64,000 bases of DNA. Source: an uncultured bacterium. Its GTDB lineage: Bacteria; Patescibacteriota; Dojkabacteria; J137. A model generated the notes under the pieces. It made no database searches. It was not told the DNA's origin and saw nothing but the letters and a program-made list of their open reading frames with translations. Shown one piece after another: positions 11,919-59,873 of this stretch. A program made the translations under genes and the position numbers. Each line of letters opens with the position of its first letter. Position 1 is the first letter of the stretch. The stretch lies in the NCBI GenBank assembly GCA_963700155.1, contig OY969472.1, positions 598,431-662,430 on the forward strand, in the 5' to 3' direction.

Positions 11919-11952
11919 CTTATAATCTCTTCGCAATATTAATAATTTTTGT

Positions 11953-12024
11953 TCCGGCTTAGCTCAGCGGTAGAGCGCTCGCCTGTTAAGCGATTGGTCG
12001 CTGGTTCGAATCCAGCAGCCGGAG
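11953..12024 (+). tRNA. tRNA-Asn (anticodon GUU)
   Basis: Manually folded cloverleaf. The acceptor TCCGGCT pairs with AGCCGGA. The D-arm is GCTC/GAGC. The anticodon stem is CTCGC/GCGAT with loop CTGTTAA. The T-arm is GCTGG-TTCGAAT-CCAGC. The discriminator is G, and CCA is not encoded. Confidence 0.85.
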
Positions 12025-12046
12025 ATTTAAATTCTTCAATTTAGAA

Positions 12047-12952: not shown

Positions 12953-15163
12953 TTATTCATATCTTAGCGCATCTAAAGCAGAGATCTTTGTAGCTCTAGT
13001 AGCTGGATATAATCCTGTCAAAACGCCTGTTATTCCAGAAATTAATAGAATTATAACTGCACTCGAAATAGGTAGATTTACAAGGTTCAGATATCCATAA
13101 CCTCTTGAAATTGAGATTAAGGAGATTATAAATGATAATAAATTTCCCGCAATAACACCAAATAGTATACCTACAATCCCTCCTAACAACCCCATTGTTA
13201 TAGATTCAGACAAGAACAAGTGTTTTACTTCTTCTGCTCTCATTCCGATAGCCTTCATTAATCCAACTTCTTTTGTCCTTTCTAAGAGTGATACAGTTAG
13301 TGTATTAAACATTCCTAATGCGGCAACAAATAATGCAACAAATCCTACTATGGCAAATACAACTCTAGCATTATCAAAAAAGCCCTGAATTTGTTGAACA
13401 GTATCTAAAATTGCAGTAGTTCTGAATCCAAGTACATTTAACTGTTGTCTCAAAGTATCAACATCAGTTTGATCACTAGTGACTAATCTTACTTGTGAGT
13501 AGTTCTTAATCCCAAGTGATTGTACGTCTTGGATTGGAGCATAAGCTTTTGGTGCGTCATTAGAAGATATTACTCCAACAATAGTATAATCAAAAGATTT
13601 TGGTTCAGATGTCTTATCAGTTTTTTGAGCACTATCAGTTAAAATGTATGAAATTTTTAATGTCTTATTAATCGCATTACCTGAGTTAAGACCTATAACG
13701 TCTAAGAATGACTGATTAACAACAATGCCTTCATTTCCAGAAATTGGATTATCTTCAAACAAATTCCCGGTAGTTATTTTTGATTCAATAGTATTTAAAT
13801 ATGCTGATTGTACGCCATAAACCACAACATCAGCATTAGAATCCTGATAATTAACATTCCCTGCGATACTTATTACAGGATATGTCTGTTCAACATGATC
13901 AAGTCCTTTTAAAGTACCAAGAGCATCTTCATTTATTATTACGCTTTCACCCAAAGACGGATAAACATCTATTTGTTTTAATTGTTCTAGTTCAGCAACT
14001 TGAGATATAACAAGATTTTCTATTCCAAAACCAATTGAAACTAAAAAGGCTGTGAATCCTATACCTAACGCAACTCCCCCTATTGTTATAAGTGCTCTAT
14101 TTCTTTTTGCAAAAAGATTTTTGAAAGAAAGTTCAAATATATCAATATAGCTGATACTTTGTATTTTTGATTTATCAAGAATATCAATAAATTTATCATA
14201 AATCCCAGTTATTAATTTATCTAATGGTTTAAATATAACTGAGATAGAGAATACTTTGTGCAAAATTCTGTAAGTTAAGGACACTATTACTAATATTGTT
14301 GAAAGTATAACAAGTCCAATTGTTGTGAAAATGTTTTTAAAAAAACCAGAATTTTGCTCTCTCTTTCGTTTTGGATTGCTAAGGTTAGAAAGATCGGCTT
14401 TATAAGGTACTGCTGTCCCATCATCAACTTTATTTTCAGTTATCAAAGACTCTTTTATTTCTTTAATGTTATCTTTAGTTATTACTGAATCTCGTACAAT
14501 CTTCCCATCAAAGATATATAGAAATCTTTTGGCGAAATCTAAATTATCAATATTATGAGTAACCATAATTACTGTTTTCCCCTCAATACTTAGTTTTTGA
14601 AGGTATTCGGACAGTTCTTTACCGCTTTTATAATCCAAGTTTCCAGTAGGTTCATCAGCAACAATTATTTGTGGATCTGTAATTAAAGCTCTTGCGAGGG
14701 AAACTTTCTGTTGTTGTCCTGAGGAAAGCTCGCTTGGCAAAAAAGTAGCCCATTCTGAAAGCTCGAATTGTTCAAGCATCTTTAAAGCTTTGGTATTTGC
14801 GTCAATCTTAGAGTAACCTCTTAAAACTAAGGGAAAAGCTACATTTTCTTGTACATTTAATGATTTTATCCAATAAGGTTGTTGATATATTATTCCCACA
14901 TTCTTTTTTCTGAAGTTAGCGAGTTCTTCACTATTTGCATTTGTTATATCAACCCCTGCAAAATTGATTGATCCTTTGGTGGCATCTTCTAATCCTAGCA
15001 GAACGTTAAGAAGTGTTGATTTACCACTTCCCGAAGGTCCAAATATCATTGCAAACTCACCTTGTGAGATTTCGACATTAACGTCTTTTAATACATCGAT
15101 GCTTTTAGGTTTTACATCATACCTTTTGAATATATTTTTTATCTTTATTATCGGATTATTCAT
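12953..15163 (-). CDS. ABC transporter, fused ATP-binding and FtsX-type permease (MacB-like topology)
   Basis: Walker A 'GPSGSGKST', signature 'LSSGQQQKVSLARAL', Walker B 'IVADEPTGNLD' and H-loop 'VTHN' in the first ~230 aa. A TM follows, then a ~300-aa extracytoplasmic domain, then three C-terminal TM helices (FtsX/MacB fold). Confidence 0.8.
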   Translation of the reverse strand: MNNPIIKIKNIFKRYDVKPKSIDVLKDVNVEISQGEFAMIFGPSGSGKSTLLNVLLGLEDATKGSINFAGVDITNANSEELANFRKKNVGIIYQQPYWIKSLNVQENVAFPLVLRGYSKIDANTKALKMLEQFELSEWATFLPSELSSGQQQKVSLARALITDPQIIVADEPTGNLDYKSGKELSEYLQKLSIEGKTVIMVTHNIDNLDFAKRFLYIFDGKIVRDSVITKDNIKEIKESLITENKVDDGTAVPYKADLSNLSNPKRKREQNSGFFKNIFTTIGLVILSTILVIVSLTYRILHKVFSISVIFKPLDKLITGIYDKFIDILDKSKIQSISYIDIFELSFKNLFAKRNRALITIGGVALGIGFTAFLVSIGFGIENLVISQVAELEQLKQIDVYPSLGESVIINEDALGTLKGLDHVEQTYPVISIAGNVNYQDSNADVVVYGVQSAYLNTIESKITTGNLFEDNPISGNEGIVVNQSFLDVIGLNSGNAINKTLKISYILTDSAQKTDKTSEPKSFDYTIVGVISSNDAPKAYAPIQDVQSLGIKNYSQVRLVTSDQTDVDTLRQQLNVLGFRTTAILDTVQQIQGFFDNARVVFAIVGFVALFVAALGMFNTLTVSLLERTKEVGLMKAIGMRAEEVKHLFLSESITMGLLGGIVGILFGVIAGNLLSFIISLISISRGYGYLNLVNLPISSAVIILLISGITGVLTGLYPATRATKISALDALRYE

Positions 15164-15213
15164 TATACTTATTAAACATTTAATATATGATTATGATTTT
15201 CAAGTTCATTTTA

Positions 15214-18200
15214 TTACAAAAAGCTAAAGATGTCTTGTAACCCTTTCAAAACAATATCAAGTGCACTCTCAGATTTCTGAGGTGCAATAGTTACAATATT
15301 ATTAGTTTGCGATTCATTCTTACTACTATCATCAGATACAGCTCTTAAGTGATATACACCGGATGGTTTAAGATTAGAAACAATTACAACATGTTTAAGA
15401 CCTAAAGTTCTATCAATCTGAGTACTTTGACTGTAATCACCAGAAGAACCTTCACCAAATTCTACTTGACTTGTAGCAAGTTCATCAGTGGTCCAAGAAA
15501 CAATAACTTGAGCAGTAGAGTCTTGAGAATCAGGATTAACAGCTTCAACTTTAATGTTAGAGATAGCAGGAGGTCTAGTATCAGTCGCAGTAGTAAATGT
15601 ATGAACATCAGAAGTAGCTTGATTACCAATAGAATCTGTACCTTTTACTACAAGTGAGTACTTAGTATCAGTCGAAAGATTTTCAATAGTTAACTTATGA
15701 TCGGTTTTAGGTTCAATATCGATGACATTTTTAATAAGATCTGGATTATCAGCAGGATAGAATGAAACAATTGATGATATCTCAGTATTAGAAGACCAAG
15801 AGACATCAACAGTAGGTTGGGCAACATTCTTAACTTCTTGAATTTGTATATTACTTACAGTTGGTCTTGGTAATGTAGTTAGGTCTAAAATGGTACCTTG
15901 ATACTCGAATCCTTCAACATCTGTTGGATTAATTTTAAAGTAATATTTAGTTCCGTCATCTAAATTACTTAAAAGAGCAGTGTAAGAACTTTCAATAAAT
16001 GCAGTGTCAATAGTTTTCAATCCTCCAAAATCAGTTGATTTTCCATAATATACTTTTACAGATTTAGCATTAGTAACTGTAAAATTGATTAATGCTGAAT
16101 CAATTCCAACATTAGATGCATTTGCATTCTTAACTGTTGGTGCAGGATCTGTGGAGAAAGTTTTCTCTTCACTGATACCTGTATTCCCATCTTCATCAGT
16201 CCATTTAGCTCTGTAGTAGTAAGTTGTTCCAGCCGACAGATTATCAAGAGTAACAGTATGAGCAGTAACTTGAGCAGAAACAGCACTTTCAGCTTCAAGA
16301 TAATCATTAGATGAAAGTCCTATTTGAATTTTAGAGTCAGATCTTCTGTCTGTTACCCATGAGATAACTGCTTTTCTTGTAGTAGTAGCATTAACAGTAG
16401 GACCGGAGATTAAATCAGCAGGACTAGTATATTTACCTGTAGGATATTTAGTAACAGTACTAGAAACAGCAGAGCAATTGTTTGCAGAGTCACATGCTTT
16501 TATGCAGTAATAGTAATCTTGTTGTGATAGTCCTGTATCAATATATGATGTTCCTAATACTGTACTGATTTTTGAGAAGTCTCCAAAACTGACACTACAA
16601 GAAGCACTGGTAGTAGTAGATCTATATACATCGTAATTAGAAACTCCTGCACCAACATTAGAAGGAGTGGTCCAAGTTAAAGCTAATTTCCAATCAGAAG
16701 TATCTTTATTAGAGATATCAGCAACATCAGGGTTCAAAGGAATACCAGGTGCTTGTCCGGAATAGGTAAATGTAATAGATGTATATGTACTGTAATTGAT
16801 ATTCCCAGCCTCATCTTTAGCAACTACATAGAAAGTATTAGTGTCAGGTTGATTAGCGAATGCGTCTGCTGATAAACTTGTTACACCTGCGCTAGTATAT
16901 GTACAAGTGTTTACGCTAGGTAAGGTATTAATTGTATAGCAGTATGTTAGGTTGCTAACACTACCAGTAAAAGTTCCTGGAGGATCCCAGTCAAAAGCAT
17001 AAGAATTAGTAGTATTATCACTTGGTGTAACACTTAAGTTTTGTGGTTCACTAGGTGCATTAGTGTTAATTTTTAGTACTCCTGAGATACTTGATGTAGA
17101 AATATTCCCAGCTAAGTCTAATGTTCTAAAGTAAATGATGTTGTTACCATCAGAAAGGTTAGGATAATCATAAGTAGGATCAGTAGTATAGGTGCCGTCA
17201 TTAACAAGTCGGTCAGTTAAATCTTGATTACCATTATGTAAATCTCCATACCATGTACCTCCACTTCCAATTCTGTATTGTAAACCTGCTAAACCGGCAC
17301 CAACATCAGTAGCTTCATTACCTCCAGTTGTTGGCCAAGTGATAGTGGCATCTTTAGTAGAGATAAAGTTAGATGGCATAGAGATAAAGTCAGGGTTCTC
17401 TGGAGGTGTATTATCAAATTTGAATGAAATTAAATCCTGGTAAAGATTAGAAGCACCACTCCAAATATTACCGGTAACATCAACAGCTTTGATAGAGAAG
17501 TAGTATTGTTTACCTGTTGTTAGAGTCAATCCAGAGATACTACTTAAGTCAACGTGATCCCCTGTAGCAATGTAATCACAATAACTTTCACTTACACCAT
17601 CATCAAGACCATGGAGGATACCTCCACTAGTAGCAGGGTTAACACTGCTAGAGTTACCAGGAGTAGCTTCGTCAAGTGAAATACAATATCCTAACAACCC
17701 ACTTCCACCAACATTGTCGTTACCTTCGGTCCAGTTAATTTGAGGTTTAGACTTGACCCAGTCACCGTCATTAACTCCTGAGATATTAATACTTGTGGCA
17801 TTTTGTGTTGGTAAGGTTGTATCATAAGTTAAGTCTAAAGATACATCTGAAAGAACAGGAGTATTCTGTCCACCAGAACTTAGGAATGATTTAAATGCAA
17901 AATATTTACTAGAAGGACTAAAGCTAGAGATATTAGTGTTAATATCAGAAGCAATATTGGAATTAGCACTTGAACTAGCGTTACTCCAAGCAGCACCATC
18001 CCAGTATTTCCAAGTATTATTTGAATTACAATTAGAAACAGTATCACCACATATTTGATAATATATCTCACTTCCTGCAGGTTTAGTAGAAGTAGTAGTA
18101 CAGTTACTACTACCATCTAAAGTACCTTCACAGAAGTGATCAATCGATTGTGGCCTAGATGTTAGATCTAAAGAGTTAGTAGAACTAACTGATGGTTTAT

Positions 18201-18440
18201 CAACAGGATAATTTTGATAAGTAAATGTATTACTTGATATTTTAGGTAAGTAACTAGAATTATCAGTTTCAAGAATAGTTTTGTATTGAAAATATTGATT
18301 ATTAGAAACGTTACTTAAAGCAAAAGTAGGTAAGTCAGTAGAAGTATTATTAGCATCAGAATAATATGTATTGGAAGTCCCATCAGGACCGATAAATGAC
18401 TCTCCAGAGCAAGCATTATCATCACATGATCTAACCTGGT
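15214..18440. repeat. ~3.2-kb near-identical direct repeat, copy 1 (3' two-thirds of paralogue A)
   Basis: Nucleotide stretches from 15214 to ~18440 are almost identical to 20217 to ~23445. The encoded proteins run from 'KYQVRSCDDNACSGESFIGPDG...' to the C-terminus with only scattered substitutions. Confidence 0.8.
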
Positions 18441-20196
18441 ATTTTACATTTTGGAGACCTCTTTTATAAATAGTATTAATTTCAGTTGGAGAAAGACTTT
18501 TATTGAAGATAGAGAATTCGTCCATAAATCCTTTAAATTTAGATGATGGACTGCCTGAGTATAGTGCTCCAATTTCCATTTTATTTTGTGTTATTGATCC
18601 AAAGGTGGTAGAAACTGTTGAAGCTGCAACACCATTTACATATGTAGTTAAATTATTCCCATTACGAACTCCTACTACATAATACCATTTTCCTGCTTCA
18701 ATAATATTGGAGTAAGTTGATCCTACTATATGACTAGCATCATCTCTAACTAAAAACGTTATGTCATTATTACCTGTAGCGAATTGAAATAATACGGCTG
18801 AACCGGCTGTAGTAGTTCGATAAGCACCGATCGTGTATGAAACAGACACTGAGTCTACATTTATCCAAGCTGATACAGAATAATTTGTTCCCAGAGTTGT
18901 TCCAGGGTAGGGATCATTAAGTTCAATATAGCTATTGCCATCAAAGTATTCTGAGTAACTACCTAATTTATAGACTAAATTAGAAAATTGGGATGAGCCT
19001 ACAATAGTACCATTTTTGCTATTGCCACTTGAATCATTTGCATTCCCGTCAAAGTGCCAAAGCCCCTGATTGTTCGACATATCAACATTATCTGTACTAT
19101 ATTGAGTTTCAATTCCTTTATTATCTGGCAAATTCTTCCCGTAAGGAGCATTTGGTAACCAATTAATATTTTGCCAAGTTGTCCCATCAGAAACAGATGT
19201 ATCAAAAACTTTTGAAGTATATTCCCCATACAGACCTGCACCTTTTTCATAATTTGTTTTAATTTCACTTGCAGACAAGGCAGTAGAGTATATCGTTGTA
19301 TCGTCTAGAGCTCCGACAAAATATCCATGCCCCCCAGAAGGATCAATAGAAATACTTTTCCAATTAAAATATCGTAAGTTACCAGATGAAGATCCATTCT
19401 TAATATACTCACCATTTAGATATAGTGATATTGTATTATTATTATTGACAACGGTAACAAAATTCCATCCAGAAAGAGTAGTGCTATAAACTAAATTATA
19501 AGGCATTAACCCAGATTTTTGCTCACATAATGTAATCCCATTAGTCCCAACATTGATTCCTAATCCGGTTCCACCTGTAACATAGTGGGGATAGAATATA
19601 GTTCTATTAGATGTTAAATTTGAAAAGCATTCAACCCCACTTCCACTTTGAGATCCAAGATGAGTAGTTGATTCAGGTTTAACCCATGTACTTATTGTAA
19701 ATGTTGTACTACTAATTTCCCCATCAGGAACATCTACATAACTAGTGTTGTCAAAATGTCCAGCTGTTCCTATCTGTCCTGTTGTAAATATTGCTCCATA
19801 AGATGTACCATTATAATTACCTAATTCATCATTCCAGTTATTCTCAAATCTCCACTGTGCAACAACCCCCGGATCGTTTGAAGGGGTAGAAGCTGGTGTA
19901 TTACTTAAAGTTAAATTACCAGAAGAATATTGAGTATTATTGTATGTACCTAAATCATATTTAGCTTGAGAATCATCAGTAATATCAGTTTGAACTTGTT
20001 TTAAAGAAGCTTCACCTCCAGTTACTTGAATCTTATTGGAATCAGATAAAGTATAGTCTGAAGGTGTAGAAAAATCCCAGGTGAAGCTGGTTGATGCAAA
20101 TAATTTAGTACCTATAAAAATTATAGGTATGCTAACCAGAACAATAATAATAAAGACTTCTTTTTTTTCAATTTTCTTAATTCTAAATTTTTTCAT
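15214..20196 (-). CDS. giant surface protein, paralogue A (1660 aa): signal anchor, LamG/ConA-like lectin modules, Cys-rich linkers, multiple Fn3/PKD-like domains
   Basis: N-terminus 'MKKFRIKKIEKKEVFIIIVLVSIPIIF' with one TM. The conserved module 'FASTSFTWDFSTPSDYTLSDSNKIQVTGGEASLKQVQT' follows. Two LamG-like modules are present (e.g. 'NYSVSAWINVDSV...YVVGVRNGNNLTTYVNG'). Repeated ~95-aa beta modules such as 'TSPADLISGPTVNATTTRKAVISWVTDRRSDSKIQIGL...TTYYYRAKWTDEDGNTG' follow. The C-terminus is 'ALDIVLKGLQDIFSFL'. Confidence 0.7.
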   Translation of the reverse strand: MKKFRIKKIEKKEVFIIIVLVSIPIIFIGTKLFASTSFTWDFSTPSDYTLSDSNKIQVTGGEASLKQVQTDITDDSQAKYDLGTYNNTQYSSGNLTLSNTPASTPSNDPGVVAQWRFENNWNDELGNYNGTSYGAIFTTGQIGTAGHFDNTSYVDVPDGEISSTTFTISTWVKPESTTHLGSQSGSGVECFSNLTSNRTIFYPHYVTGGTGLGINVGTNGITLCEQKSGLMPYNLVYSTTLSGWNFVTVVNNNNTISLYLNGEYIKNGSSSGNLRYFNWKSISIDPSGGHGYFVGALDDTTIYSTALSASEIKTNYEKGAGLYGEYTSKVFDTSVSDGTTWQNINWLPNAPYGKNLPDNKGIETQYSTDNVDMSNNQGLWHFDGNANDSSGNSKNGTIVGSSQFSNLVYKLGSYSEYFDGNSYIELNDPYPGTTLGTNYSVSAWINVDSVSVSYTIGAYRTTTAGSAVLFQFATGNNDITFLVRDDASHIVGSTYSNIIEAGKWYYVVGVRNGNNLTTYVNGVAASTVSTTFGSITQNKMEIGALYSGSPSSKFKGFMDEFSIFNKSLSPTEINTIYKRGLQNVKYQVRSCDDNACSGESFIGPDGTSNTYYSDANNTSTDLPTFALSNVSNNQYFQYKTILETDNSSYLPKISSNTFTYQNYPVDKPSVSSTNSLDLTSRPQSIDHFCEGTLDGSSNCTTTSTKPAGSEIYYQICGDTVSNCNSNNTWKYWDGAAWSNASSSANSNIASDINTNISSFSPSSKYFAFKSFLSSGGQNTPVLSDVSLDLTYDTTLPTQNATSINISGVNDGDWVKSKPQINWTEGNDNVGGSGLLGYCISLDEATPGNSSSVNPATSGGILHGLDDGVSESYCDYIATGDHVDLSSISGLTLTTGKQYYFSIKAVDVTGNIWSGASNLYQDLISFKFDNTPPENPDFISMPSNFISTKDATITWPTTGGNEATDVGAGLAGLQYRIGSGGTWYGDLHNGNQDLTDRLVNDGTYTTDPTYDYPNLSDGNNIIYFRTLDLAGNISTSSISGVLKINTNAPSEPQNLSVTPSDNTTNSYAFDWDPPGTFTGSVSNLTYCYTINTLPSVNTCTYTSAGVTSLSADAFANQPDTNTFYVVAKDEAGNINYSTYTSITFTYSGQAPGIPLNPDVADISNKDTSDWKLALTWTTPSNVGAGVSNYDVYRSTTTSASCSVSFGDFSKISTVLGTSYIDTGLSQQDYYYCIKACDSANNCSAVSSTVTKYPTGKYTSPADLISGPTVNATTTRKAVISWVTDRRSDSKIQIGLSSNDYLEAESAVSAQVTAHTVTLDNLSAGTTYYYRAKWTDEDGNTGISEEKTFSTDPAPTVKNANASNVGIDSALINFTVTNAKSVKVYYGKSTDFGGLKTIDTAFIESSYTALLSNLDDGTKYYFKINPTDVEGFEYQGTILDLTTLPRPTVSNIQIQEVKNVAQPTVDVSWSSNTEISSIVSFYPADNPDLIKNVIDIEPKTDHKLTIENLSTDTKYSLVVKGTDSIGNQATSDVHTFTTATDTRPPAISNIKVEAVNPDSQDSTAQVIVSWTTDELATSQVEFGEGSSGDYSQSTQIDRTLGLKHVVIVSNLKPSGVYHLRAVSDDSSKNESQTNNIVTIAPQKSESALDIVLKGLQDIFSFL

Positions 20197-20216
20197 TAAT
20201 TTCTACCCATACTTGA

Positions 20217-23200
20217 TTACAAAAAGCTAAAGATATCTTGTAAACCTTTCAATACAATATCGAGTGCACTCTCAGATTTCTGAGGAGCGATAGTTACAAT
20301 ATTATTAGTTTGCGATTCATTTTTACTACTATCATCAGATACAGCTCTTAAGTGATAAACACCAGATGGTTTAAGATTAGAAACAATAACAACATGTTTA
20401 AGACCTAAAGTTCTATCAACTTGAGTACTTTGACTGTAATCACCAGAAGAACCTTCACCAAATTCAACTTGACTTGTAGCAAGTTCATCAGTAGTCCAAG
20501 AAACAATAACTTGAGCAGTAGAATCTTGAGAATCAGGATTAACAGCTTCAACTTTAATGTTAGAGATAGCAGGAGGTCTAGTATCAGTAGCAGTAGTAAA
20601 TGTATGAACATCAGAAGTAGCTTGATTACCAATAGAATCTGTCCCTTTAACTACTAAGGAATATTTAGTATCTGCTAAGAGACTAGTAACTTCAAGTTTA
20701 TGCTCGGTTTTAGGTTCAATATCGATAACATTTTTAACAAGATCAGGCTGATCAACAGGATAGAATGAAACAATTGATGATATCTCAGTATTAGAAGACC
20801 AAGAGACATCAACAGTAGGTTGAGCTACATTCTTAACTTCTTGAATTTGTATATTACTTACAGTAGGTCTTGGTAATGTAGTTAAGTCTAAAATAGTCCC
20901 TTGATATTCGAATCCTTCAACATCTGTTGGATTAATTTTAAAGTAATATTTAGTGCCGTCATCTAAGTTAGTCAATAATGTAGTATATGAGCTTTCGATA
21001 AATGCAGTGTCAATTGTCTTTAATCCTCCAAAATCTGTTGATTTCCCATAATATACTTTTACAGATTTAGCATTAGTAACTGTAAAATTGATTAATGCTG
21101 AATCAATTCCAACATTAGATGCATTTGCATTCTTAACTGTTGGTGCAGGATCAGTTGAGAAAGTTTTCTCTTCACTAATACCTGTATTCCCATCTTCATC
21201 AGTCCATTTAGCTCTGTAGTAGTAAGTTGTTCCAGCAGATAAATTATCAAGAGTAACAGTATGAGCAGTAACTTGAGCAGAAACAGCACTTTCAGCTTCA
21301 AGATAATCATTAGATGCAAGTCCTATTTGAATTTTAGAGTCAGATCTTCTGTCTGTTACCCAAGAGATAACTGCTTTTCTTGTGGTAGTAGCATTAACAG
21401 TAGGACCGGAGATTAAATCAGCAGGACTGGTATATTTACCTGTAGGATATTTAGTAACAGTACTAGAAACAGCTGAGCAATTGTTAGCAGAGTCACATGC
21501 TTTGACACAATAGTAATAGTCTTGTTGGATAAGTCCAGTATCAATATATGAGGTACCTAATACTGTACTGATCTTGGAGAAGTCTCCAAAACTGGCACTA
21601 CAAGAAGCACTAGAAGTAGTAGATCTGTAAACATCATAACTAGAAACTCCAGCACCAACATTACTTGGAGTAGTCCAAGTTAAAGCTAATTTCCAATCAG
21701 AAGTATCTTTATTCGAAATATCAGCAACATCAGGATTCAATGGAATACCTGGTGCTTCTCCAGAATAGGTAAAAGTAATAGATGTATAGGTACTGTAATT
21801 AATATTTCCGGCTTCATCTTTAGCGACTACATAGAAAGTATTAGTATCAGGTTGATTAGCAAATGCATCTGCTGAAAGTGAGGTTACTCCTGCAGATAGT
21901 ATACGTGCAAGTAGTGCTACTAGGTAGAGTATTAATTGTATAACAGTATGTTAAGTTCCTAACACTACCGGTAAAAGTTCCAGGAGGATCCCAGTCAAAA
22001 GCATAAGAATTAGTAGTATTATCACTTGGTGTAACACTTAAGTTTTGTGGTTCACTAGGTGCATTAGTATTAATCTTTAAAACTCCACTAATACTTGATG
22101 TAGAAATATTCCCAGCTAAGTCTAATGTTCTAAAGTAAATGATGTTGTTACCATCAGAAAGGTTAGGATAATCATAAGTAGGATCAGTAGTATAGGTGCC
22201 GTCATTAACAAGTCGGTCAGTTAAATCTTGATTACCATTATGTAAATCTCCATACCATGTACCTCCACTGATCCAATTTTGTACTGCAATCCAGCTAAAC
22301 CAGCTCCAACATCAGTAGCTTCATTACCTCCGGTTGTTGGCCAAGTGATAGTAGCATCTTTAGTAGAGATAAAGTTAGATGGCATTGAGATAAAGTCAGG
22401 GTTCTCTGGAGGTGTATTATCAAATTTGAATGAAATTAAATCCTGGTAAAGATTAGAAGCACCACTCCAAATATTACCGGTAACATCAACAGCTTTGATA
22501 GAGAAGTAGTATTGTTTACCTGTTGTTAGAGTCAAACCAGAGATACTACTTAAGTCAACGTGATCACCAGTAGCAATGTAGTCACAATAACTTTCAGTAA
22601 CACCATCATCTAAACCATGGAGAATTCCACCACTAGTAGCAGGGTTAACACTGTTAGAGTTACCAGGAGTAGATTCATCAAGTGAAATACAATAACCTAA
22701 CAAACCACTTCCTCCAACATTATCATTACCTTCAGTCCAATTAATTTGAGGTTTAGACTTAATCCAATCACCATCATTAACTCCAGAGATATTAATGCTA
22801 GTAGCATTCTGTGTTGGTAAAGTTGTGTCGTATGTTAAGTCTAAAGATACATCTGTCAGAACAGGAGTATTCTGACCACTAGAACTTAAGAATGATTTAA
22901 ATGCAAAATATTTACTAGAAGGACTAAAGCTAGAGATATTAGTGTTAATATCAGAAGCAATATTAGAATTAGCACTTGAACTAGCATTACTCCAAGCAGC
23001 ACCATCCCAATACTTCCAGGTATTATTACTATCACAATTAGAGACAGTATCACCACAAATTTGATAATATATCTCACTTCCAGCAGGTTTAGTAGAAGTC
23101 GTAGTACAGTTACTACTACCATCTAAAGTACCTTCACAGAAGTGATCAATAGATTGTGGTCTTGATGTTAAATCTAAAGAGTTAGTAGAACTAACTGATG

Positions 23201-23445
23201 GTTTATCAACAGGATAATTTTGATAAGTAAAAGTATTACTTGAAATTTTAGGTAAGTAACTAGAATTATCAGTTTCAAGAATAGTTTTGTATTGAAAATA
23301 TTGATTATTAGAAACGTTACTTAAGGCGAAAGTTGGTAAATCAGTAGATGTATTATTAGCATCAGAGTAGTAAGTATTAGAGGTTCCATCAGGTCCGATG
23401 AAGGATTCACCTGAACAAGCATTGTCATCACAAGAACGTACCTGA
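20217..23445. repeat. ~3.2-kb near-identical direct repeat, copy 2 (3' two-thirds of paralogue B)
   Basis: See copy 1. Identity extends through the conserved C-terminus 'ALDIVLKGLQDIFSFL'. Confidence 0.8.
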
Positions 23446-25157
23446 TATTTTACATCATTTATTCCACGTTTGTATAAGGAGCCCACTTCAGAATTAGTTA
23501 AGACATGGTTAAAAATTGCTAATTCATCCATTCCACCAGTCCAGTACTGTGAATTACCTCCTCCTAAAGACATAGTTTGTATTGCCGGAGCAGTCAGTGC
23601 GGTAGTGTTAGTTCCTAGCTTGGTACCATTTTCATAGATGTTATAAACATCATTATTAAAATCCCAATCGATAGCAACATGAATCCAGGTATTTGCGGCA
23701 AATGCAATAGGGCCAGTTATTGCTCTATAGTTCAAATTAATATAAGAATAAAATCCTGAAGCAACACTATAAGATAATTGTATACCAGAAGTTGTTGTTC
23801 CCCACTGAAAAATAGGGTTATATGTTGTTGGTGGAGAGCTTGAGTTAAAACTTGGTTTCAACCATACACTTAATGTTCCTGTATTAACATTAAATCCTGT
23901 ATTTCCTAAAGTTATATAATCACCACTCCCATCAAAATAAGCACCATTACTACCAAATTTTGCAGTCGATGATGGTGTTGAATTCCCGGATGGACTTGCT
24001 GTATTATTTTGTCCACTAGAATCATTCCAATTTCCATTAAAATGCCAAAGTCCAATATTTCCACTCATATCTACATTATCTTCAGAATATTGTGTTTCAG
24101 CAGCTGCATTATTTGGAAGTTCTTTCCCATAGGGAGAATTTGGTACCCAATTAACATTTTGCCAAGTAACCCCATCTGTTATCGAAGTATTGAAAACTTT
24201 TGAAGAATACTCACCATAATGTCCAACATTTTTAAGGTAATTTTCCTTAATTTGTGTATCTGTTAATACAGTATTATATACAATTACTTCGTCTGCTGAT
24301 CCTGCTGTCCCATGTGCACCTGAAAGACTTCCTATTGCAAAAGGTGCGTTATTTGTTACTCCATTACTTATTACATCAGTATCTTCGAGGTTACCATCAA
24401 AATATAATTTCTGTGTATTTGTTGCCGCATTAAATGTACATATAACATAATGCCAATTCCCGTCAGTGATTGTAGATGTTGATGTTGAATATGCATCTGG
24501 GGCATAACAACTAACCTTATTTGCTGTAGGATAATTTGTTGTAATGAAAGAACCATTTGGACTACCAGCTAAGTGCTTTGAAATAGGGATACCTTGAGTT
24601 GTTATCGTGGTTTTTATCCAGCCACCATATGATCTATCATAATCTCCAAACTCAATTTGTGAATATTCCGGGATTGTAACGTAGTTTGTTCCAGAGAAGG
24701 AAAGTGCATTTCCTACTTTACCTGTTGTCCATGTAGGTGAACCAACAAGTGTCCCGTTATGCCCCAATCCGCTAGAATCACTTGCAGTGGTTCCTGACCC
24801 ATCGTCTAGTTTCCAAAACCCTACTAAGCCACTATCAGGCGCAGTTATATGCTGAGATGTATTTCCTAATGTTAAATTACCAGAAGAATAAAGTGTGTTT
24901 GAATATGTACCTAAATCAAATTCAGATTGAGAGTTATCAGTGATATTAGTTTGAACTTGTTTTAAAGAAGCTTCACCTCCAGTAACTTGAATCTTATTAC
25001 TGTCCGATAAAGTGTAATCAGATGGAGTAGAGAAATCCCAAGTGAAGCTAGTGGATGCAAAAAGTTTAGCAGTAATAAAAATTATTGGAATACTTATTAA
25101 AATTACTATGATTAATATTTCTTTTTTTTGAATTTTTCTAGATTTAAATCTTTTCAT
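20217..25157 (-). pseudogene. giant surface protein, paralogue B; reading frame broken by two single-nucleotide insertions (near 22275 and 21905), splitting it into 22221..25157, a middle piece, and 20217..21740
   Basis: Piece 22221..25157 (978 aa) has the same N-terminal module as A but different LamG cassettes. Piece 20217..21740 (507 aa) is ~97% identical to the C-terminus of A. In between, B has 'ggatcagtggagg' where A has 'ggaagtggagg', and 'gcagatagtatac' where A has 'gcgctagtatat'. Each is a 1-nt insertion that shifts the frame, and a TAA follows in the shifted frame. Confidence 0.6.
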
Positions 25158-25169
25158 TATATATTTTAA

Positions 25170-28100
25170 TTACAAAAAGCTGAAAATATCTTGCAAACCT
25201 CTTAAGACAATATCTAATGCATTCTCGGATCTCTGAGGAGTAATAGTAACAATATTATTGCTTAAGGTTTCGTTTTTGCTACCATCTTCTGAAACTGCTT
25301 CTAAGTGATATACACTTGATGGTTTCAGGTTTGAGATAATGACTACATGCTTTAAGCTCAAACTTCTATCAATTTGAGTCCCTTGAGCGAAGGAACCTCC
25401 GGTTCCTTCGCCATAAAGAACTTGACTTGTTGCTAGCTCATCTGTAGTCCAAGACACTACAATTTGAGCAGTAGAATCTTGAGAATCAGGATTCACAGCT
25501 TCAATTTTTATATTAGAAATTTCTGGTGGTCTTGTATCTGTTGCTGTAGTAAAAGTATGAACTTCTGAAGTCGCTTCATTGCCGATAGCATCTGTACCTT
25601 TAACAACAAGTGAGTATTTAGTGTCGGCATTTAAAGTTGCAACCTCAAGCTTGTGATCAGTTTTCAAATCAAGATCAATAACATTTTTTACAAGGTCAGG
25701 ATTATCAGCTGGATAGAATGAAACAATAGATGATATATCTGTATTTGATGACCAGGTTACATCAATTGTAGGTTGAGCAACATTCTTAACTTCTTGAATT
25801 TGTATATTACTTACAGTTGGTCTAGGAAGAGTAGTGAAATCCAGAACAGTTCCTTGATATTCTGTACCTTCTGTGTCGGTTGGATTAATTTTGAAATAAT
25901 ATTTCACACCATCAGTTAACTCTGTTAATACAGCAGTATAAGAACTTTCAATAAATGCAGTATCTAGTTCCTGTACTGCTCCAAATCCTGTAGTTTTACC
26001 ATAATATATTTTTACTAAGTTAGCATTATTACTTGTAAATTTAATTAAAGCTGAATCAATTCCAACGTTTGTAACTTTAACATTTGTAATAACAGGAGGT
26101 GGATCGGTAGTGAATGATTTTTCTCCACTTGTGCCAGTATTTCCATCTTCATCAGTCCACTTGACTATATAGTAATATGTAGTACCAGCCTTAAGATTAT
26201 TGAGTGTTACTGTATGTGCAGTGACCTGAGCGGAAATACCGACTTCTTCTTCAAAGTAATCACCAGAGGATAAACCATATTGAATTTTAGAGTCGGATCT
26301 TCTATCTGTTACCCACGAGATAACTCCCTTTGTAGTAGTTTTTGCATTTAATGAAGGGCCTGAGATCAGATCGGCAGGACTAGTATATTTCCCTGTAGGA
26401 TATTTAGTAACTGTACTGGATACTGCAGAACAGTTGTTAGCAGAGTCACATGCCTTCACACAATAGTAATAGTCCTGTTGGCTAAGTCCTGAATCAACAT
26501 AAGATGTTCCTAATACTGTACTAACTTTATTAAAGTCACCAAAATCAGAACTACAAGAAGCACTAGCAGTTGTAGATCTATATACATCATAATTAGAAAC
26601 TCCAGCTCCAACATTACTTGGGGTAGACCAAGTTACAGCTAATTTCCATTCTGAAGTATCCTTATTGGAGATATCTGCAACATCGGGATTTAAAGGAATC
26701 CCTGGAGCTTCACCTGAATAAGTAAAGGTAATTGATATATTGGTACTATAATTAATATTCCCAGCTTCGTCTTTAGCAACAACATAGAAAGTATTGGTGT
26801 CAGGCTGGTTAGCAAATGCATCGGCTGATAAACTTGTTACACCCGCACTAGTATATGTACAAGTAGTTGAGCTTGGCAAGGTGTTAACAGTATAACAATA
26901 TGTTATCGCTGAAACACTTCCTGTGTAAGTTGCCGGAGGATCCCAATCAAATGCGTATGAGTTGGCGGTGTTATCAGAAGGTGTTACACTTAAGTTTTGT
27001 GGTTCACTAGGAGCAGTTGTATTGACTTTTAATAAACCATTTACCGTTGAACTGGAAACATTTCCTGCAAGGTCCAATGTTCTGAAATATATAATATTGT
27101 TTCCATCAGATAGGTTAGGGTAATCATAAGTGGGGTCAGTAGTATATGTACCATCATTAACAAGAAGATCCATTAAATCTTCACTCCCAGTATGTAAATC
27201 TCCATACCATGTACCTCCAGAACCAATCTTATATTGTAATCCATCTAAACCAGCACCAACATCGTTAGCAGCATTACTATCACCAACAGGCCAAGTAATA
27301 GTTGCGTCTTTAGTAGAGATAAAGTTAGACGGCATAGAGATAAATGTAGGATTAGTAGGAGGGGTATTGTCATATCTAAATGATATTAAATCTTGATAAT
27401 CTCCTGATGATCCACTCCAAATATTACCGACGACATCAACAGCTTTAATAGAGAAGTAGTATTGTTTACCTGTTGTTAAAGTAAGTCCTGGAATACTACT
27501 AAGGTCAACATGATCTCCTGTAGCAATAAAGTCACAATAAGTGTCTGTTACTCCATCATCAAGACCATGAAGAATGCCAGCACTAGTAGCAGGGTTAATA
27601 CTACTGGAGTTATCAGGTTCAGCTTCATCTAAGGCAATGCAATATCCAAGGATTCCACTTCCATTAACATTATCATCACCTTCAGTCCAGTTGATTGTTG
27701 GTTTAGATTTGACCCAGTCACCATCATTTACATCTGAAATATTTATACTGGTGGCATTCTGTATAGGTGCAGTTGTATCATAAGTTACATCAAGTGACAC
27801 ATCAGAGAGTACTGGTGTATTTTGACCACCGGAGCTTAAGAAAGATTTAAATGAAAAGAACTTACTAGAAGGACGAAAGATAGAAATATTAGTATTAATT
27901 GTACTTGCAGTATTAGAGTTAGAACTTGAGCTTGCATTGCTCCAAGCAGCACCATCCCAATACTTCCAAGTATTATTAGAATTACAATTAGAAACAGTAT
28001 CGCTACATACTTGATAATATAGTTCGGTATTTGTAGGCTTAGTAGAAGTAGTAGTACAGTTACTACTTCCATCTAAAGTACCTTCACAGAAATGATCGAT

Positions 28101-29591
28101 AGATTGAGGTCTGTATGTTAAATCCATAGAAGTAGTAGGATTAACTGTTGGTTTATCAACAGGATAATTCTGATAAGTAAATGTATTACTAGAAATTTTT
28201 GGTAAATAACTTGCATTACCACTTTCTAGAGTAGCTTTATATTGAAAGTATTGATTACGGGTTAAAGATGATATATCGAAAGTGGCAGGTGAATTTGTCG
28301 TGTTATGGATTTCATCATAGTAACTACTTGAAGTTCCATCAGGACCAATAAAACTTTCGCCAGAACATGCATTATCATCGCATGATCTAATCTGGTATTT
28401 TACATTTTGAATTCCACGTTTATAAATATTAAGAATTTCAGTGTCCGATAAAATTCTGTTCCAAACAGCCACATCTTCAATTTGACCCTTGAAGTTGTTT
28501 AAGTAAGCATGAGAATATTGATTGTATACAGTACCTATAAGAAAACTAGAATAATATGCATTTAAAGTCTCAGTTCTTGAATTCTCTAGTTGTCCGTTTA
28601 CATATATATATCCATATCCTGTTGTACCATTACGGACACCAGTTATTAAGTACCAAACACCTGGTGTTAATGTGGTAGTTGACACAACTGAAGATCCATT
28701 ACTGCAGCCTGAAGGAAGTATGTCCATCCCAGCTTTACCAGTACTTCCTATGTTTATACCATATCCATACCAACAACTTATTGAGTCTGCTGCTTCCTTG
28801 CCTGCTATTGCCATAGTAGTCCCAATTTGTGTAATTTTTACCCATGCAGAAATAGTAAAGGTACTTATTCCTAATGACCCTCCATCACTTACTGTTCCAT
28901 AGTCACCGTTGCCATCTAGGTCTAATACCTTAGTTGGCCTATCTGAGTTTACAAATGCAGCATTCCCGCTGAGAGTTACCGAATGATTGTATCCGCTTGA
29001 ATCACTTGTATTATTCATATGCCATAAGCCAAGATTCCCGGTCATATCGATATTACCAGTTGAGTATCCTGATTCAGTTGCATGATTATTAGGCAATTCT
29101 TTTCCATAAGGTAACTCTGCACTCCAATTAAAGTTTTGCCACGCTACGCCATCTATGGCTGATGTGTCATATATTTTTGAGGTATAACTTCCTGATAGTG
29201 ACAAACTATCCAAGGTTAAATGCCCAGAAGAGTATTGAGTATTATTATATGTTCCTAAATCGAATTCAGATTGTGAATCATCAGTTGTATTTGTCTGTAT
29301 TTGTTGTAAAGATACATTTCCACCTGTGATTTGCATCTTGTTGCTGTCAGATAATGTGTAATCCGAAGGAGTAGAAAAATTCCATGAAAAACTAGTAGAG
29401 GCAAATAATTTTATATAAATTACAGGAATAATTAAGATAGCTATAAAAATAACAGTCAAAACGACATATGCTTTCCTGACCTTGTTTAAAGGATTTTTTT
29501 TGCCTAAATTTGTATGTAACATCTTCTTTAACATAATATATAGGTTTCCCCTATAAATCAACATAGATAATAAGGATAAATGAAAAATCAA
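25170..29591 (-). CDS. giant surface protein, paralogue C (1473 aa as listed; the true start is probably the internal Met near 29531)
   Basis: Same architecture as A and B but ~75-80% identical. It has the N-terminal 'LFASTSFSWNFSTPSDYTLSDSNKMQITGG' module, a LamG-like module, the 'KYQIRSCDDNACSGESFIGPDG' Cys linker, Fn3-like repeats and the C-terminus 'ALDIVLRGLQDIFSFL'. Confidence 0.7.
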   Translation of the reverse strand: MIFHLSLLSMLIYRGNLYIMLKKMLHTNLGKKNPLNKVRKAYVVLTVIFIAILIIPVIYIKLFASTSFSWNFSTPSDYTLSDSNKMQITGGNVSLQQIQTNTTDDSQSEFDLGTYNNTQYSSGHLTLDSLSLSGSYTSKIYDTSAIDGVAWQNFNWSAELPYGKELPNNHATESGYSTGNIDMTGNLGLWHMNNTSDSSGYNHSVTLSGNAAFVNSDRPTKVLDLDGNGDYGTVSDGGSLGISTFTISAWVKITQIGTTMAIAGKEAADSISCWYGYGINIGSTGKAGMDILPSGCSNGSSVVSTTTLTPGVWYLITGVRNGTTGYGYIYVNGQLENSRTETLNAYYSSFLIGTVYNQYSHAYLNNFKGQIEDVAVWNRILSDTEILNIYKRGIQNVKYQIRSCDDNACSGESFIGPDGTSSSYYDEIHNTTNSPATFDISSLTRNQYFQYKATLESGNASYLPKISSNTFTYQNYPVDKPTVNPTTSMDLTYRPQSIDHFCEGTLDGSSNCTTTSTKPTNTELYYQVCSDTVSNCNSNNTWKYWDGAAWSNASSSSNSNTASTINTNISIFRPSSKFFSFKSFLSSGGQNTPVLSDVSLDVTYDTTAPIQNATSINISDVNDGDWVKSKPTINWTEGDDNVNGSGILGYCIALDEAEPDNSSSINPATSAGILHGLDDGVTDTYCDFIATGDHVDLSSIPGLTLTTGKQYYFSIKAVDVVGNIWSGSSGDYQDLISFRYDNTPPTNPTFISMPSNFISTKDATITWPVGDSNAANDVGAGLDGLQYKIGSGGTWYGDLHTGSEDLMDLLVNDGTYTTDPTYDYPNLSDGNNIIYFRTLDLAGNVSSSTVNGLLKVNTTAPSEPQNLSVTPSDNTANSYAFDWDPPATYTGSVSAITYCYTVNTLPSSTTCTYTSAGVTSLSADAFANQPDTNTFYVVAKDEAGNINYSTNISITFTYSGEAPGIPLNPDVADISNKDTSEWKLAVTWSTPSNVGAGVSNYDVYRSTTASASCSSDFGDFNKVSTVLGTSYVDSGLSQQDYYYCVKACDSANNCSAVSSTVTKYPTGKYTSPADLISGPSLNAKTTTKGVISWVTDRRSDSKIQYGLSSGDYFEEEVGISAQVTAHTVTLNNLKAGTTYYYIVKWTDEDGNTGTSGEKSFTTDPPPVITNVKVTNVGIDSALIKFTSNNANLVKIYYGKTTGFGAVQELDTAFIESSYTAVLTELTDGVKYYFKINPTDTEGTEYQGTVLDFTTLPRPTVSNIQIQEVKNVAQPTIDVTWSSNTDISSIVSFYPADNPDLVKNVIDLDLKTDHKLEVATLNADTKYSLVVKGTDAIGNEATSEVHTFTTATDTRPPEISNIKIEAVNPDSQDSTAQIVVSWTTDELATSQVLYGEGTGGSFAQGTQIDRSLSLKHVVIISNLKPSSVYHLEAVSEDGSKNETLSNNIVTITPQRSENALDIVLRGLQDIFSFL

Positions 29592-29688
29592 ACCTTTTTC
29601 TAATCTGGGAAATTATTATTATTTTATGGATTTCTGAAAGTGTCTTTTCCTTAACAGGGAGGCTTTATAAAGTTTATATAATTTTTCT

Positions 29689-29735
29689 TGACACTTTTGG
29701 TATACCATGTATACCATATAAGTATACTAATTTAT
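29689..29735 (+). promoter_or_regulatory. candidate lexA promoter (TTGACA -35) overlapping a triple GTATAC / TGGTATACCA palindromic array (putative LexA operator) in the divergent intergenic region shared with the giant-protein operon
   Basis: Sequence 'cTTGACActtttGGTATACCatGTATACcatataaGTATACtaa' lies 12-58 nt upstream of the lexA ATG. TGGTATACCA is a perfect 10-bp palindrome. Confidence 0.4.
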
Positions 29736-29747
29736 TAACTTAGGTAT

Positions 29748-30386
29748 ATGTCAAAATTTTTAACTTCAAAACAAAGAATAGTTTTAGATGCTCTTTCATC
29801 TTATCTTGAAGAAAATGGCGAGGCGCCAACCTTGGCTGAACTTCAAGAAATCCTTGGAATAAAAACTAAGAGAGGCGTTGCAAAACACCTAGAAGCTTTA
29901 GAAAGAAAAGGCTTTATTTATCGAAGTGGGAAATCTAGAGGAATTATGTTAGAAAATAGCCTTAATTCGGAAATGTATGATGTCCCAATTTTAGGGTATG
30001 CAAATGCAGGTCAGCCTTTAGTTTTTGCCGAAGAAGATATAGTTGGATCAATTAAAGTTGACAAAGATATTATTAAAAACAAAAAAAATATTTTTGCTCT
30101 TGTTGTAAAAGGTGATTCCATGAATATGAGAACTATTAATAAAGTCCCAATTGTAGATAAGAATTTTATCTTAGTTCAAAAAGAGAGCTCTTATGATAAT
30201 GGAGATGTTGTACTTGCAGTAATAGATAATGCAGCAACAGTAAAAACATTTAAAAGAAGTGATAATTCAGTAATACTTTATCCTGAATCAAATAATCCTG
30301 TTCATACTCCAATTTATTTAAGAGATGATGTTCATGGATTTATTAATGGGAAAGTAATTGCTGTTTTAGAAAATCCATCAAATTAA
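29748..30386 (+). CDS. lexA: LexA-like SOS repressor (S24 peptidase family)
   Basis: N-terminal winged HTH 'PTLAELQEILGIKTKRGVAKHLEALERKGFIYR', a linker, and the C-terminal S24 domain with 'VVKGDSMNM' (catalytic Ser) and a downstream Lys in 'ATVKTFKR'. Confidence 0.85.
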   Translation: MSKFLTSKQRIVLDALSSYLEENGEAPTLAELQEILGIKTKRGVAKHLEALERKGFIYRSGKSRGIMLENSLNSEMYDVPILGYANAGQPLVFAEEDIVGSIKVDKDIIKNKKNIFALVVKGDSMNMRTINKVPIVDKNFILVQKESSYDNGDVVLAVIDNAATVKTFKRSDNSVILYPESNNPVHTPIYLRDDVHGFINGKVIAVLENPSN

Positions 30387-30403: not shown

Positions 30404-30838
30404 ATGAATAGGTACAAAATTTCAAATTTAAAGTCATCAGTAAGAATAGAGGAGATAGTAAAATTATTTATGGAATGTGGTTGGGGTCAAAAATATAGTA
30501 TTCAAAGTGCAAAAGAGATTTTAAAGAATAACAACATGGCAATATTTGCAAGAGATAACAAAGGCAAATTAGTTGGATTGTTAAGAATTTTGAATGAAGG
30601 CTCACGTTCAGCTAATGTAATGGATGTCGTAATTCATCCTAGGTATTCAAGCAGTTTAATTACGTCAAAATTAGTAAATTCTATAAAGAAACAATTTAAA
30701 GGAAGAAAAATTTATATAGATGAACTAAATGAATCAAGCAACTATTTTTTTATAAACCGAGGATTTAAATTAAGAAATTCGGTTCAAACACAGCAAGTTC
30801 AAGTTCCTTGGTTCGCGAAATTATTTGGAAACTATTAA
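30404..30838 (+). CDS. GNAT-family N-acetyltransferase-like protein
   Basis: 144 aa with 'LVGLLRIL...VMDVVIHPRYSSSLITSKLVNSI', resembling GNAT motif A. Confidence 0.45.
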   Translation: MNRYKISNLKSSVRIEEIVKLFMECGWGQKYSIQSAKEILKNNNMAIFARDNKGKLVGLLRILNEGSRSANVMDVVIHPRYSSSLITSKLVNSIKKQFKGRKIYIDELNESSNYFFINRGFKLRNSVQTQQVQVPWFAKLFGNY

Positions 30839-34200: not shown

Positions 34201-34655
34201 GGGGATGTTTATTCGACAGTGAATTGCGGGTTTTAAAGCAAGTCAGAAGTTTATTAATTTCTTCTGTAAATCTCAAATTAATCGTTCCGTAAGGAATGTT
34301 TTGACAATAAACGTCAATAAAATTTCTAATGCATTTAACAGTGCTGTAAATGCTGTAGCTAGAGCTTTTGCTCCCAACTACAACTTATTTGTAGCCTAAG
34401 TTATTTGCAGTAGCTCGAATACAAAAGTAGAGCTACCGTTTGATTTTTCTTCTCTCGATGAGAAACTTCAGGCGAAACAAAGTCGGGATACAAGAAAAGT
34501 TTTTTAATTTATGAAACTTTTCCCAAGTTTAAAATAAATTCGGCATAAGTTTGTTTTTCTAGTTTTTAGAATTTATGCTGTAAAGAAAATTAGATAAACT
34601 TGTAAAACTTTAAGATTTTATATTTGCTGGACAGGGGTTTCCCTCATCTCCACCA
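34201..34655 (+). ncRNA. ssrA: tmRNA (ssrA)
   Basis: The 5' end GGGGATGTTTATTCGACAGTGAATTGCGGG parallels E. coli GGGGCUGAUUCUGGAUUCGACGGGAUUUGCG. The 5' GGGGATG pairs with 3' CATCTCC, including the G3:U70 wobble (Ala identity), and is followed by an encoded ACCA. An internal reading frame GCT..AAC TAC AAC TTA TTT GTA GCC TAA gives the tag '...(A)PNYNLFVA' (cf. ANDENYALAA). The T-arm looks unusually compact. Confidence 0.75.
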
Positions 34656-39466: not shown

Positions 39467-39721
39467 AATTAATTTTACTAAAATCTTTATTTACTTACAA
39501 AATGTGCCTAGATCACAATCTAAGCCTAAAATTAATACTACCTTATCTTTTGTTAGGTAGTATATACTAAGTATATCACATCTTTAATTTTTTGCAAATA
39601 AGCTTTAAAGTTCTAGTATGTAATCTAATTTCATTATCTGTACAAAACATTTATACTTTATCAGGTCTGGATTGAGAATTCTAGCTTTTTTATGTATATT
39701 ATCTTAGATTAAATAAATAAA

Positions 39722-50106: not shown

Positions 50107-50123
50107 ATTAGTTTATTTATATT

Positions 50124-50663: not shown

Positions 50664-50694
50664 ATAATAATTAATCCTTAAATATTAATATAAA

Positions 50695-51162: not shown

Positions 51163-51242
51163 TTAAATTATAAAGTAATAACTTGATTTCATCTTTATAT
51201 TGTGTTTTAATGATGAAAATTAATATATGTTAGTTTAAAAAA

Positions 51243-51674: not shown

Positions 51675-51708
51675 TAAATACTTAAAAGTAGATTTTAAAA
51701 GGTAAGAA

Positions 51709-52488: not shown

Positions 52489-52566
52489 TTATATCCTAAG
52501 TGTTGTAACAAAATGTCAAACTTTCGTAATTTCTTTTTTTCATATACAATGTGTTAGTTAACTACT

Positions 52567-55913: not shown

Positions 55914-55971
55914 AAGGAATATTATTTTACTTCCCAAATACCCAGTAGAGTGGAGTTTCTTTAAATAGAGT

Positions 55972-56000
55972 CTAGAATCAACAATTCTAGTATTTAATTT
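55972..56000 (+). terminator. candidate rho-independent terminator after the SpoIID-domain gene
   Basis: CTAGAAT-CAACA-ATTCTAG followed by TATTTAATTT. Confidence 0.35.
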
Positions 56001-59852: not shown

Positions 59853-59873
59853 GAATATGCTATTATAAGCTTT

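Follow-up and report, generated by a model that had tools for sequence, protein, structure and literature searches.

The intergenic region upstream of lexA in the window (the whole 64-kb stretch of DNA that was analyzed) contains an array of GTATAC units that is most likely an autoregulatory lexA operator, belonging to a lineage of the Patescibacteria (CPR) that is related to Dojkabacteria/WS6. Judged from the promoters compared here, the control logic is most likely that of every other lexA promoter, but the box would be lineage specific and based on GTATAC. The features are listed in window coordinates.

25170 to 29522, minus strand: giant Laminin_G_3/fn3 surface protein gene, 1,450 to 1,473 amino acids (aa) (Pfam); divergent and not counted in the regulated unit.
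29688 to 29693, plus strand: −35 hexamer TTGACA of the lexA promoter (promoter scan, conservation).
29700 to 29714, no strand: candidate core operator GTATAC-N3-GTATAC, units 1 and 2, putative LexA site (PSSM and conservation).
29712 to 29717, plus strand: −10 hexamer TACCAT inside unit 2 (promoter scan; the alternative is TATACC at 29710 to 29715).
29722 to 29727, no strand: unit 3, GTATAC, putative auxiliary operator unit downstream of the −10 hexamer.
29744 to 29749, no strand: GTATAT over the lexA start codon, GGTATATG, identical in the window and in relatives L203, L202, L002, and L004.
29748 to 30386, plus strand: lexA, 212 aa, canonical cleavable LexA repressor (Pfam PF01726 and PF00717, alignment).
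30404 to 30838, plus strand: GNAT acetyltransferase gene, 17 nucleotides (nt) after lexA (Pfam Acetyltransf_1).
34201 to 34655: tmRNA gene (Rfam RF00023, 53 bits), filling a 686-bp gap before yidC and not called by ARAGORN.

When the letters of the window were reread, TTGACA at 29688 to 29693 was followed by cttttgGTATACcatGTATACcatataaGTATACtaatttattaacttagGTATATG. GTATAC units start at 29700, six bases after TTGACA, and at 29709 and 29722, with the spacers cat and catataa; the array is directly 5′ of lexA. An earlier reading of the sequence alone had reported TTGACA and GTATAC repeats at this place, and that description was correct. It had also singled out a 10-bp palindrome, and this palindrome, TGGTATACCA, is indeed present around unit 1 at 29698 to 29707, but the palindrome as a whole is not kept: in the window-clade comparison the relatives carry GGGTATACCT or AGGTATACCA there, and just the GTATAC core stays the same. 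GGTATATG comes 16 bases after unit 3 and has its ATG at 29748. The GTATAT that it contains is 22 bp after unit 3, a spacing that recurs in Dojkabacteria arrays, and it is either a fourth unit or simply the ribosome-binding site plus ATG.

To score such sites we used a 19-nt PSSM trained only on the lexA sites of relatives. The site at 29698 to 29716 scored 26.4 bits, the top value in the window and close to the training median of 25.8; the next site scored 13.6, and all others scored 5.3 or less.

In about 80 species the array has been retained beside lexA, whereas the flanks and the neighboring genes differ. The comparison set consisted of 80 lexA loci from species-representative genomes, plus further loci of closer relatives (loci are cited by L number). 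In an unbiased count of hexamers from −120 to −1 of 79 nonidentical lexA promoters, GTATAC was the most enriched, being found in 79/79 versus 3.9 expected, although the sequences are related and P values therefore overstate their independence. At least two GTATAY units were present in 77 of the 79, with two to five copies per promoter. The density of GTATAC was 11.9/kb in the lexA promoters versus 0.46/kb in the remaining ∼590 kb of the same loci, the latter being close to the 0.34/kb expected from composition. No gene other than lexA is always found beside the array; the upstream neighbors of lexA vary and include genes for a giant protein, a DUF4870 protein, acyltransferase/tRNA, small open reading frames (ORFs), and others.

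Within the window clade, in which LexA is 65 to 84% identical, the layout is TTGACA, 6 to 7 variable bases, GTATAC-N3-GTATACCAT, in most cases another GTATAC, and GGTATATG. Conservation is confined to the −35 box, the units, and the −10 hexamer; the flanks diverge. The pair formed by units 1 and 2 is kept in L203, L202, L002, L004, L003, L005, and L006 and is slightly degenerate in L204 and L206. Unit 3 is found in the window, L203, L202, L002, and L004, and its place is taken by AGTACT or AATACT in L005, L006, and L003. Over the whole set, the exact N3 pair, with its 9-bp spacing, occurs in 35 of the 79 promoters, including that of the window, and the units of other subclades are spaced 22/14/22, 21, or 15/8. 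When direct symmetry was compared with inverted symmetry, the flank identity was 23 to 28 of 96 in all registers.

The array also has a defined position relative to the promoter. The sole strong sigma-70-type match that the promoter scan found in the region was TTGACA-18 nt-TACCAT (10/12). Unit 1 is in the spacer of this promoter, unit 2 contains the −10 hexamer, and unit 3 is just downstream; read from these coordinates, the units lie where repressors that occlude RNA polymerase classically bind. Ten window-clade relatives have TTGACA at this place (TTGACC in L002), and the sequence upstream of it is not alignable. All window-clade relatives retain TACCAT, including those with a degenerate unit 2 (atATACCAT in L204 and GTgTACCAT in L206). 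In Dojkabacteria, one unit is always 34 to 39 bp before the ATG and embeds the −10 hexamer TATACT, and this unit is accompanied by a second one 9 bp downstream or by others upstream. Several units fall on −10 or −35 hexamers (TATACT/TACCAT are −10-like, TTGTAT is −35-like), so some of the conservation may reflect promoter constraint.

Two other features of the Dojkabacteria lexA genes were observed. A second conserved block, tACTATAAGTAsTTGc, is found in their promoters at about −60 to −75 (for example, in L026, L031, and L048); it contains the palindrome TACT-ATA-AGTA, abuts the −35 box, and is present even when there is no GTATAC unit there. In L010, L015, L026, and about 25 other Dojkabacteria, two GTATAC units lie 32 bp apart inside the lexA coding sequence, at +193 and +225 from the ATG (codons ∼64 to 76), where they fall in the codons for R-G-I-H and V-Y-D-Y. 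The invariant Gly-Ile is encoded by GGT-ATA in 49 of 82 lexA sequences versus 12.7 expected from lexA codon usage, and this bias suggests selection for the intragenic GTATAC sites. The lexA gene of the window has no such intragenic units (its codons there are AGA GGA ATT).

By alignment, the ORF downstream of the array is a canonical LexA with the cleavage site and the Ser/Lys dyad in register. Its winged-helix-turn-helix (HTH) domain (PF01726, LexA_DNA_bind; E value, 1.9e-15; residues 3 to 65) aligns to residues 2 to 80 of Escherichia coli LexA, and its peptidase domain is PF00717, Peptidase_S24 (E value, 5.4e-20). The full-length protein aligned to the E. coli LexA structures 7b5g, 1jhh, and 3jso with E values of about 1e-24. 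The Ala-Gly cleavage site, A87-G88 (ANAG), aligns to E. coli A84-G85 (VAAG), and S124 (GDSM) and K166 align to E. coli S119 and K156; all four residues are invariant in 34 homologs. Also invariant in these homologs, which are 49 to 100% identical, are T40, K41, R42, G43, V44, and H47. Residues T40 to H47 align to E. coli S39 to H46 (helix 3), the segment that forms the recognition helix in the 3JSO LexA-operator structure. Before the shared histidine, six of the seven residues at 40 to 46 differ from E. coli S39 to E45, namely, T40 to V44 plus the noninvariant residue 46. Such a distinctive recognition helix fits a DNA specificity that is different from that of E. coli but constant within the clade. 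The nearest LexA proteins are in Patescibacteria-group and “Candidatus Dojkabacteria” (WS6) assemblies. An identical LexA is encoded on a 1.14-Mb contig, but the best GTDB species representative has a LexA that is only 69% identical, so the genome of the window is not one of these representatives. The GNAT gene that follows lexA, which has a homolog at the same position in L202 (45% identity), is probably cotranscribed with lexA and would therefore be under the same operator.

LexA is a textbook regulator whose binding motif has changed repeatedly in evolution. The sequence-only reading had found no match to three known LexA boxes, and the result held when we extended the comparison to eight patterns (those of E. 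coli, Gram-positive bacteria, Alphaproteobacteria, Bdellovibrio, Cyanobacteria, Geobacter, Verrucomicrobia, and Leptospira): the window matched none of the eight classes. Among the 79 lexA promoters, seven of the known classes were found in 0/79, and TTAC-N3-GTAA was found in 1/79, a chance match. There are likenesses to the E. coli (CTGT-N8-ACAG) and Gram-positive (GAAC-N4-GTTC) systems, in which the boxes also lie in and over the core promoter of lexA, the repressor also has two domains with an Ala-Gly site and a Ser/Lys dyad, and the lexA promoter also has multiple operator units. Unlike in those systems, the sequence here is unrelated to the boxes, the repeated unit is itself a 6-bp palindrome, and the spacing varies between subclades. 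The arrays can equally be read as direct repeats, like the boxes of Alphaproteobacteria/Acidobacteria (GTTC-N7-GTTC) and Balneolaeota, but the half-site and the spacing are different.

The motif may have been described before. The WS6 genome GW2011_GWF2_39_15 (L009), which carries a GTATAC pair upstream of lexA, was presumably already public in 2017. In that year, Sanchez-Osuna, Barbe, and Erill (Environ Microbiol 19:3465) reportedly studied the LexA regulon and binding motif of the Patescibacteria, the same superphylum. A later paper cites the Patescibacteria LexA of 2017 as an example that recognizes a direct-repeat motif (PMC7739468). Because GTATACCAT-GTATACCAT in the window can be read as a 9-bp direct repeat and so fits this description, the GTATAC motif may already be contained in the 2017 study. 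In the accessible full texts and supplements, we found no statement of a Patescibacteria LexA consensus, and the accessible full-text literature did not yield LexA paired with GTATAC as its binding site. At least 17 LexA motifs have been reported (PMC8565304). Each newly defined LexA motif lets the SOS regulon of a whole lineage be read from sequence, and a defined box (GTATAC-N3-GTATAC and its variants) would allow complete genomes of the Dojkabacteria type, which belong to uncultivated CPR bacteria of reduced genome size, to be scanned for genes induced by DNA damage. The practical gain is modest, since the control logic is ordinary and the motif is possibly published.

An AT-rich hexamer could have clustered by chance in an intergenic region that is itself AT rich. 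The window is about 31% G+C, and its total of GTATAC is not above expectation (13 observed versus 9.95 expected), but three of the units fall within 28 bp. Of 20,000 windows simulated with a first-order Markov model, 25 had the exact GTATAC-N3-GTATAC pair and none had a triple cluster (three units within 22 bp), and the presence of GTATAC in all of the orthologous promoters refutes chance, to which we give practically no weight. (Avoidance of GTATAC due to restriction-modification was also considered and was rejected because the window-wide count matches expectation.) A more substantial alternative is that a regulator other than LexA binds the units or that they are themselves unusual elements of the lexA promoter (extended −10/−35 mimics), with LexA binding elsewhere or not regulating its own gene. 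The coincidence of units with −10-like and −35-like hexamers is in its favor, as is the variable unit spacing, which is atypical for a dimeric repressor. Yet the densities given above (0.46/kb versus 0.34/kb expected) indicate that GTATAC is not a general promoter feature, two to five copies exceed the needs of one promoter, and promoter elements would not explain the intragenic units of ∼28 Dojkabacteria with their GGT-ATA codon bias. The array has no consistent link to any gene but lexA; these promoters contain no alternative conserved palindrome or known LexA box at which LexA could bind; and autoregulation of LexA is near-universal (PMC8565304, introduction). We therefore consider this alternative unlikely.

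One point against a LexA operator of the usual kind is that the spacing differs across the clade, whereas a rigid dimer should require a constant one. LexA dimers can use nonpalindromic half-site arrangements (PMC8565304, PMC7739468). It is conceivable, if rather doubtful, that GTATAC is a single, self-complementary, orientation-free LexA unit and that the DNA-binding domains reach across spacings of 9, 14, or 21 to 22 bp, giving arrays of two to five units, some of them placed in the lexA coding sequence by codon choice. By extension of this doubtful reading, the variable surface-protein segment beside the array would have come under SOS control. If GTATAC is such an orientation-free unit, LexA would bind DNA with unusual flexibility; in any case, that a palindromic unit is spaced so variably bears on the flexibility of the LexA dimer.

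In the autoregulatory operator that we favor, LexA, a winged-HTH protein with an S24 self-cleaving repressor domain, would bind the GTATAC units. The core GTATAC-N3-GTATAC would fill the spacer and cover the −10 hexamer of TTGACA-18 nt-TACCAT, with the third unit just downstream, and bound LexA would block RNA polymerase at the lexA promoter. Upon DNA damage, RecA-stimulated self-cleavage at Ala87-Gly88 would free the promoter, and lexA and probably the downstream GNAT gene would be transcribed. We infer LexA as the binding protein, the binding geometry, and derepression by RecA. The proposal of a noncanonical LexA box, made from the window sequence, is well supported by the 79/79 promoters, the overlap with the core promoter, the lack of a known box, the distinctive helix, and a site upstream of a helicase gene.

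This helicase site came from scanning the lexA neighborhoods. Outside the lexA promoters there were only four PSSM hits of at least 12 bits in 653 kb. The best (L053, 6472 to 6490, 17.3 bits) is 10 bp upstream of a gene for a 387-aa RecD-like helicase with AAA_30 and UvrD_C_2 domains. The ortholog of this gene in the WS6 genome GW2011_GWF2_39_15 has GTATACaagGTGTAC, which scored 19.7 bits (L210, 2455 to 2473), about 47 bp before its ATG. The helicase is conserved, at 385 to 390 aa, and the site is present in two of five Dojkabacteria species (L053 and four orthologous loci); in the other three species compared there was no operator-like site upstream of the gene. These sites provide evidence, partial but independent, for a transcription factor site that lexA shares with a DNA metabolism gene.

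In the sequence covered, no other members of the regulon emerged. The 64-kb window contains no recA, uvr, dinB, or nrd genes, and signatures of recA, uvrA/B/D, ruvB, dinB, recN, and nrd near lexA, looked for in the window and in the 80 lexA loci, gave no usable match. Of the at least 120 matches listed in a metagenome-wide scan with GGTATACTNGGTATA, all were chance matches in unrelated organisms, and none was beside lexA. The second-best PSSM hit in the window, GTATATACTAAGTATATCA at 39560 to 39578 (13.6 bits), is in a TTGCAA-16-TATACT promoter. The gene behind it encodes 188 aa with weak similarity to Nuc_deoxyrib_tr and a ribbon-helix-helix-like C-terminal tail, and it is divergent from an ftsA-like gene. 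We rejected this site as an operator and treated it as a promoter because three syntenic relatives keep TTGCAA/TTTACA-N17-TATAAT without the GTATAC pair. At L047, where nrdR-nrdD are 3 kb from lexA, GGTATATAGAAGTATATAA (GTATAT-N4-GTATAT) was found at about 4645 to 4665, ∼150 bp upstream of nrdR, and there was a 16.3-bit PSSM hit inside nrdD; these sites may weakly connect LexA with ribonucleotide reductase, or they may simply be AT-rich promoter sequence.

In some bacteria lexA is divergent from a gene for an SOS cell division inhibitor, as in the lexA-yneA pair of Bacillus subtilis and the lexA-sosA pair of Staphylococcus aureus. The arrangement in most Dojkabacteria (e.g., L011, L016, L017, and L022) is similar: lexA is divergent from a gene for a small membrane protein, a DUF4870 protein of 111 to 117 aa (MAEEKKAKK...), and GTATAC units extend across the shared region, which is 130 to 140 bp long and holds four to five GTATAY units spaced 30/22/14/22 bp. 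By analogy of position with yneA and sosA, the DUF4870 protein may be an SOS-controlled small membrane protein. In the window, unlike in these pairs, the gene divergent from lexA encodes a surface protein of 1,450 aa that is located in a variable segment and has no similarity to YneA or SosA.

In the close relatives L203, L202/L207, and L002, the gene order is acyltransferase, tRNA-Asn, zero to two small ORFs, and lexA. The window has the same acyltransferase gene (8752 to 11796) and tRNA-Asn (11952 to 12025), but an extra ∼16.7 kb separates them from lexA. This segment, 12953 to 29591, has tRNA-Asn and two small ORFs on one side and lexA on the other; it encodes a MacB-like ABC transporter and four giant proteins (1660, 507, 978, and 1473 aa) with Laminin_G_3/fn3/Pur_ac_phosph_N domains, and its G+C content is 0.35 versus 0.30 to 0.31. 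The segment looks like a variable surface protein island. The longest ORF of the giant gene next to lexA starts with TTG at 29591; on an identical public contig, however, the gene is called from an ATG equivalent to 29522. With the start at 29522, the intergenic region is about 225 bp. The array lies 108 bp from the TTG and 177 bp from the ATG.

The sequence-only reading had further suggested SOS coupling of the giant adhesin-like genes, and for this we found no support. A single operator would serve both divergent genes, so that LexA on the array would also repress the giant surface protein cluster and link adhesins to DNA damage. In its favor, the two divergent genes have a common 225-bp intergenic region, divergent SOS genes such as yneA and sosA lie beside lexA elsewhere, and the four-unit arrays of Dojkabacteria span the region between lexA and the divergent DUF4870 gene. 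However, the adjacency is peculiar to one genome. In L203, L202/L207, and L002 (LexA 84%, 77%, and 69% identical), tRNA-Asn and zero to two small ORFs precede lexA and the segment at 12953 to 29591 is missing from that position; L209 has a giant gene and MacB, but these are codirectional with lexA, and the giant gene starts 8 kb away. The divergent pairing of the giant gene with lexA, which was absent from L203, L202/L207, L002, L004, L204/L208, L206, L209, and ∼70 Dojkabacteria, is therefore specific to the window genome. Within the window, the array is 108 to 177 bp from the start of the giant gene, and the minus-strand promoter candidates, at 29646 to 29618 and 29561 to 29533, are weak (9/12 each, no commoner than in shuffled sequences), at least 53 bp from unit 1, and without overlap with 29700 to 29727. 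No block upstream of the lexA −35 box is conserved, and there is no GTATAC pair elsewhere in the giant gene cluster. We consider a shared operator very unlikely.

The surroundings of lexA have some other features. Between about 24000 and 36000, the GC skew, at first near 0 or negative, becomes strongly positive, and around lexA and the tmRNA gene the mostly minus-strand genes give way to genes that are all on the plus strand; replication origins show such a pattern. We rejected the intergenic region as an origin, as DnaA boxes were not enriched (16 near-matches versus 21.9 expected), and neither a dnaA gene nor a cluster of DnaA boxes was seen. In the comparison set, L018 (JAMNZA010000075.1), which is labeled as a Methanobacteriota archaeon, has a lexA locus of the Dojkabacteria type, and the 160 bp upstream of its lexA are identical to those of L019, a Dojkabacteria metagenome-assembled genome (MAG); the contig was probably misbinned into an archaeal MAG. 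Finally, a cluster at 49228 to 63462 encodes a protein like a T4SS pilin (51709 to 52488), a SpoIID domain protein, and several large proteins without Pfam hits, and its 814-aa protein at 61018 to 63462 has a weak, below-cutoff match to TrwB/VirD4. The cluster may be a type IV secretion/competence-like system of the Patescibacteria.
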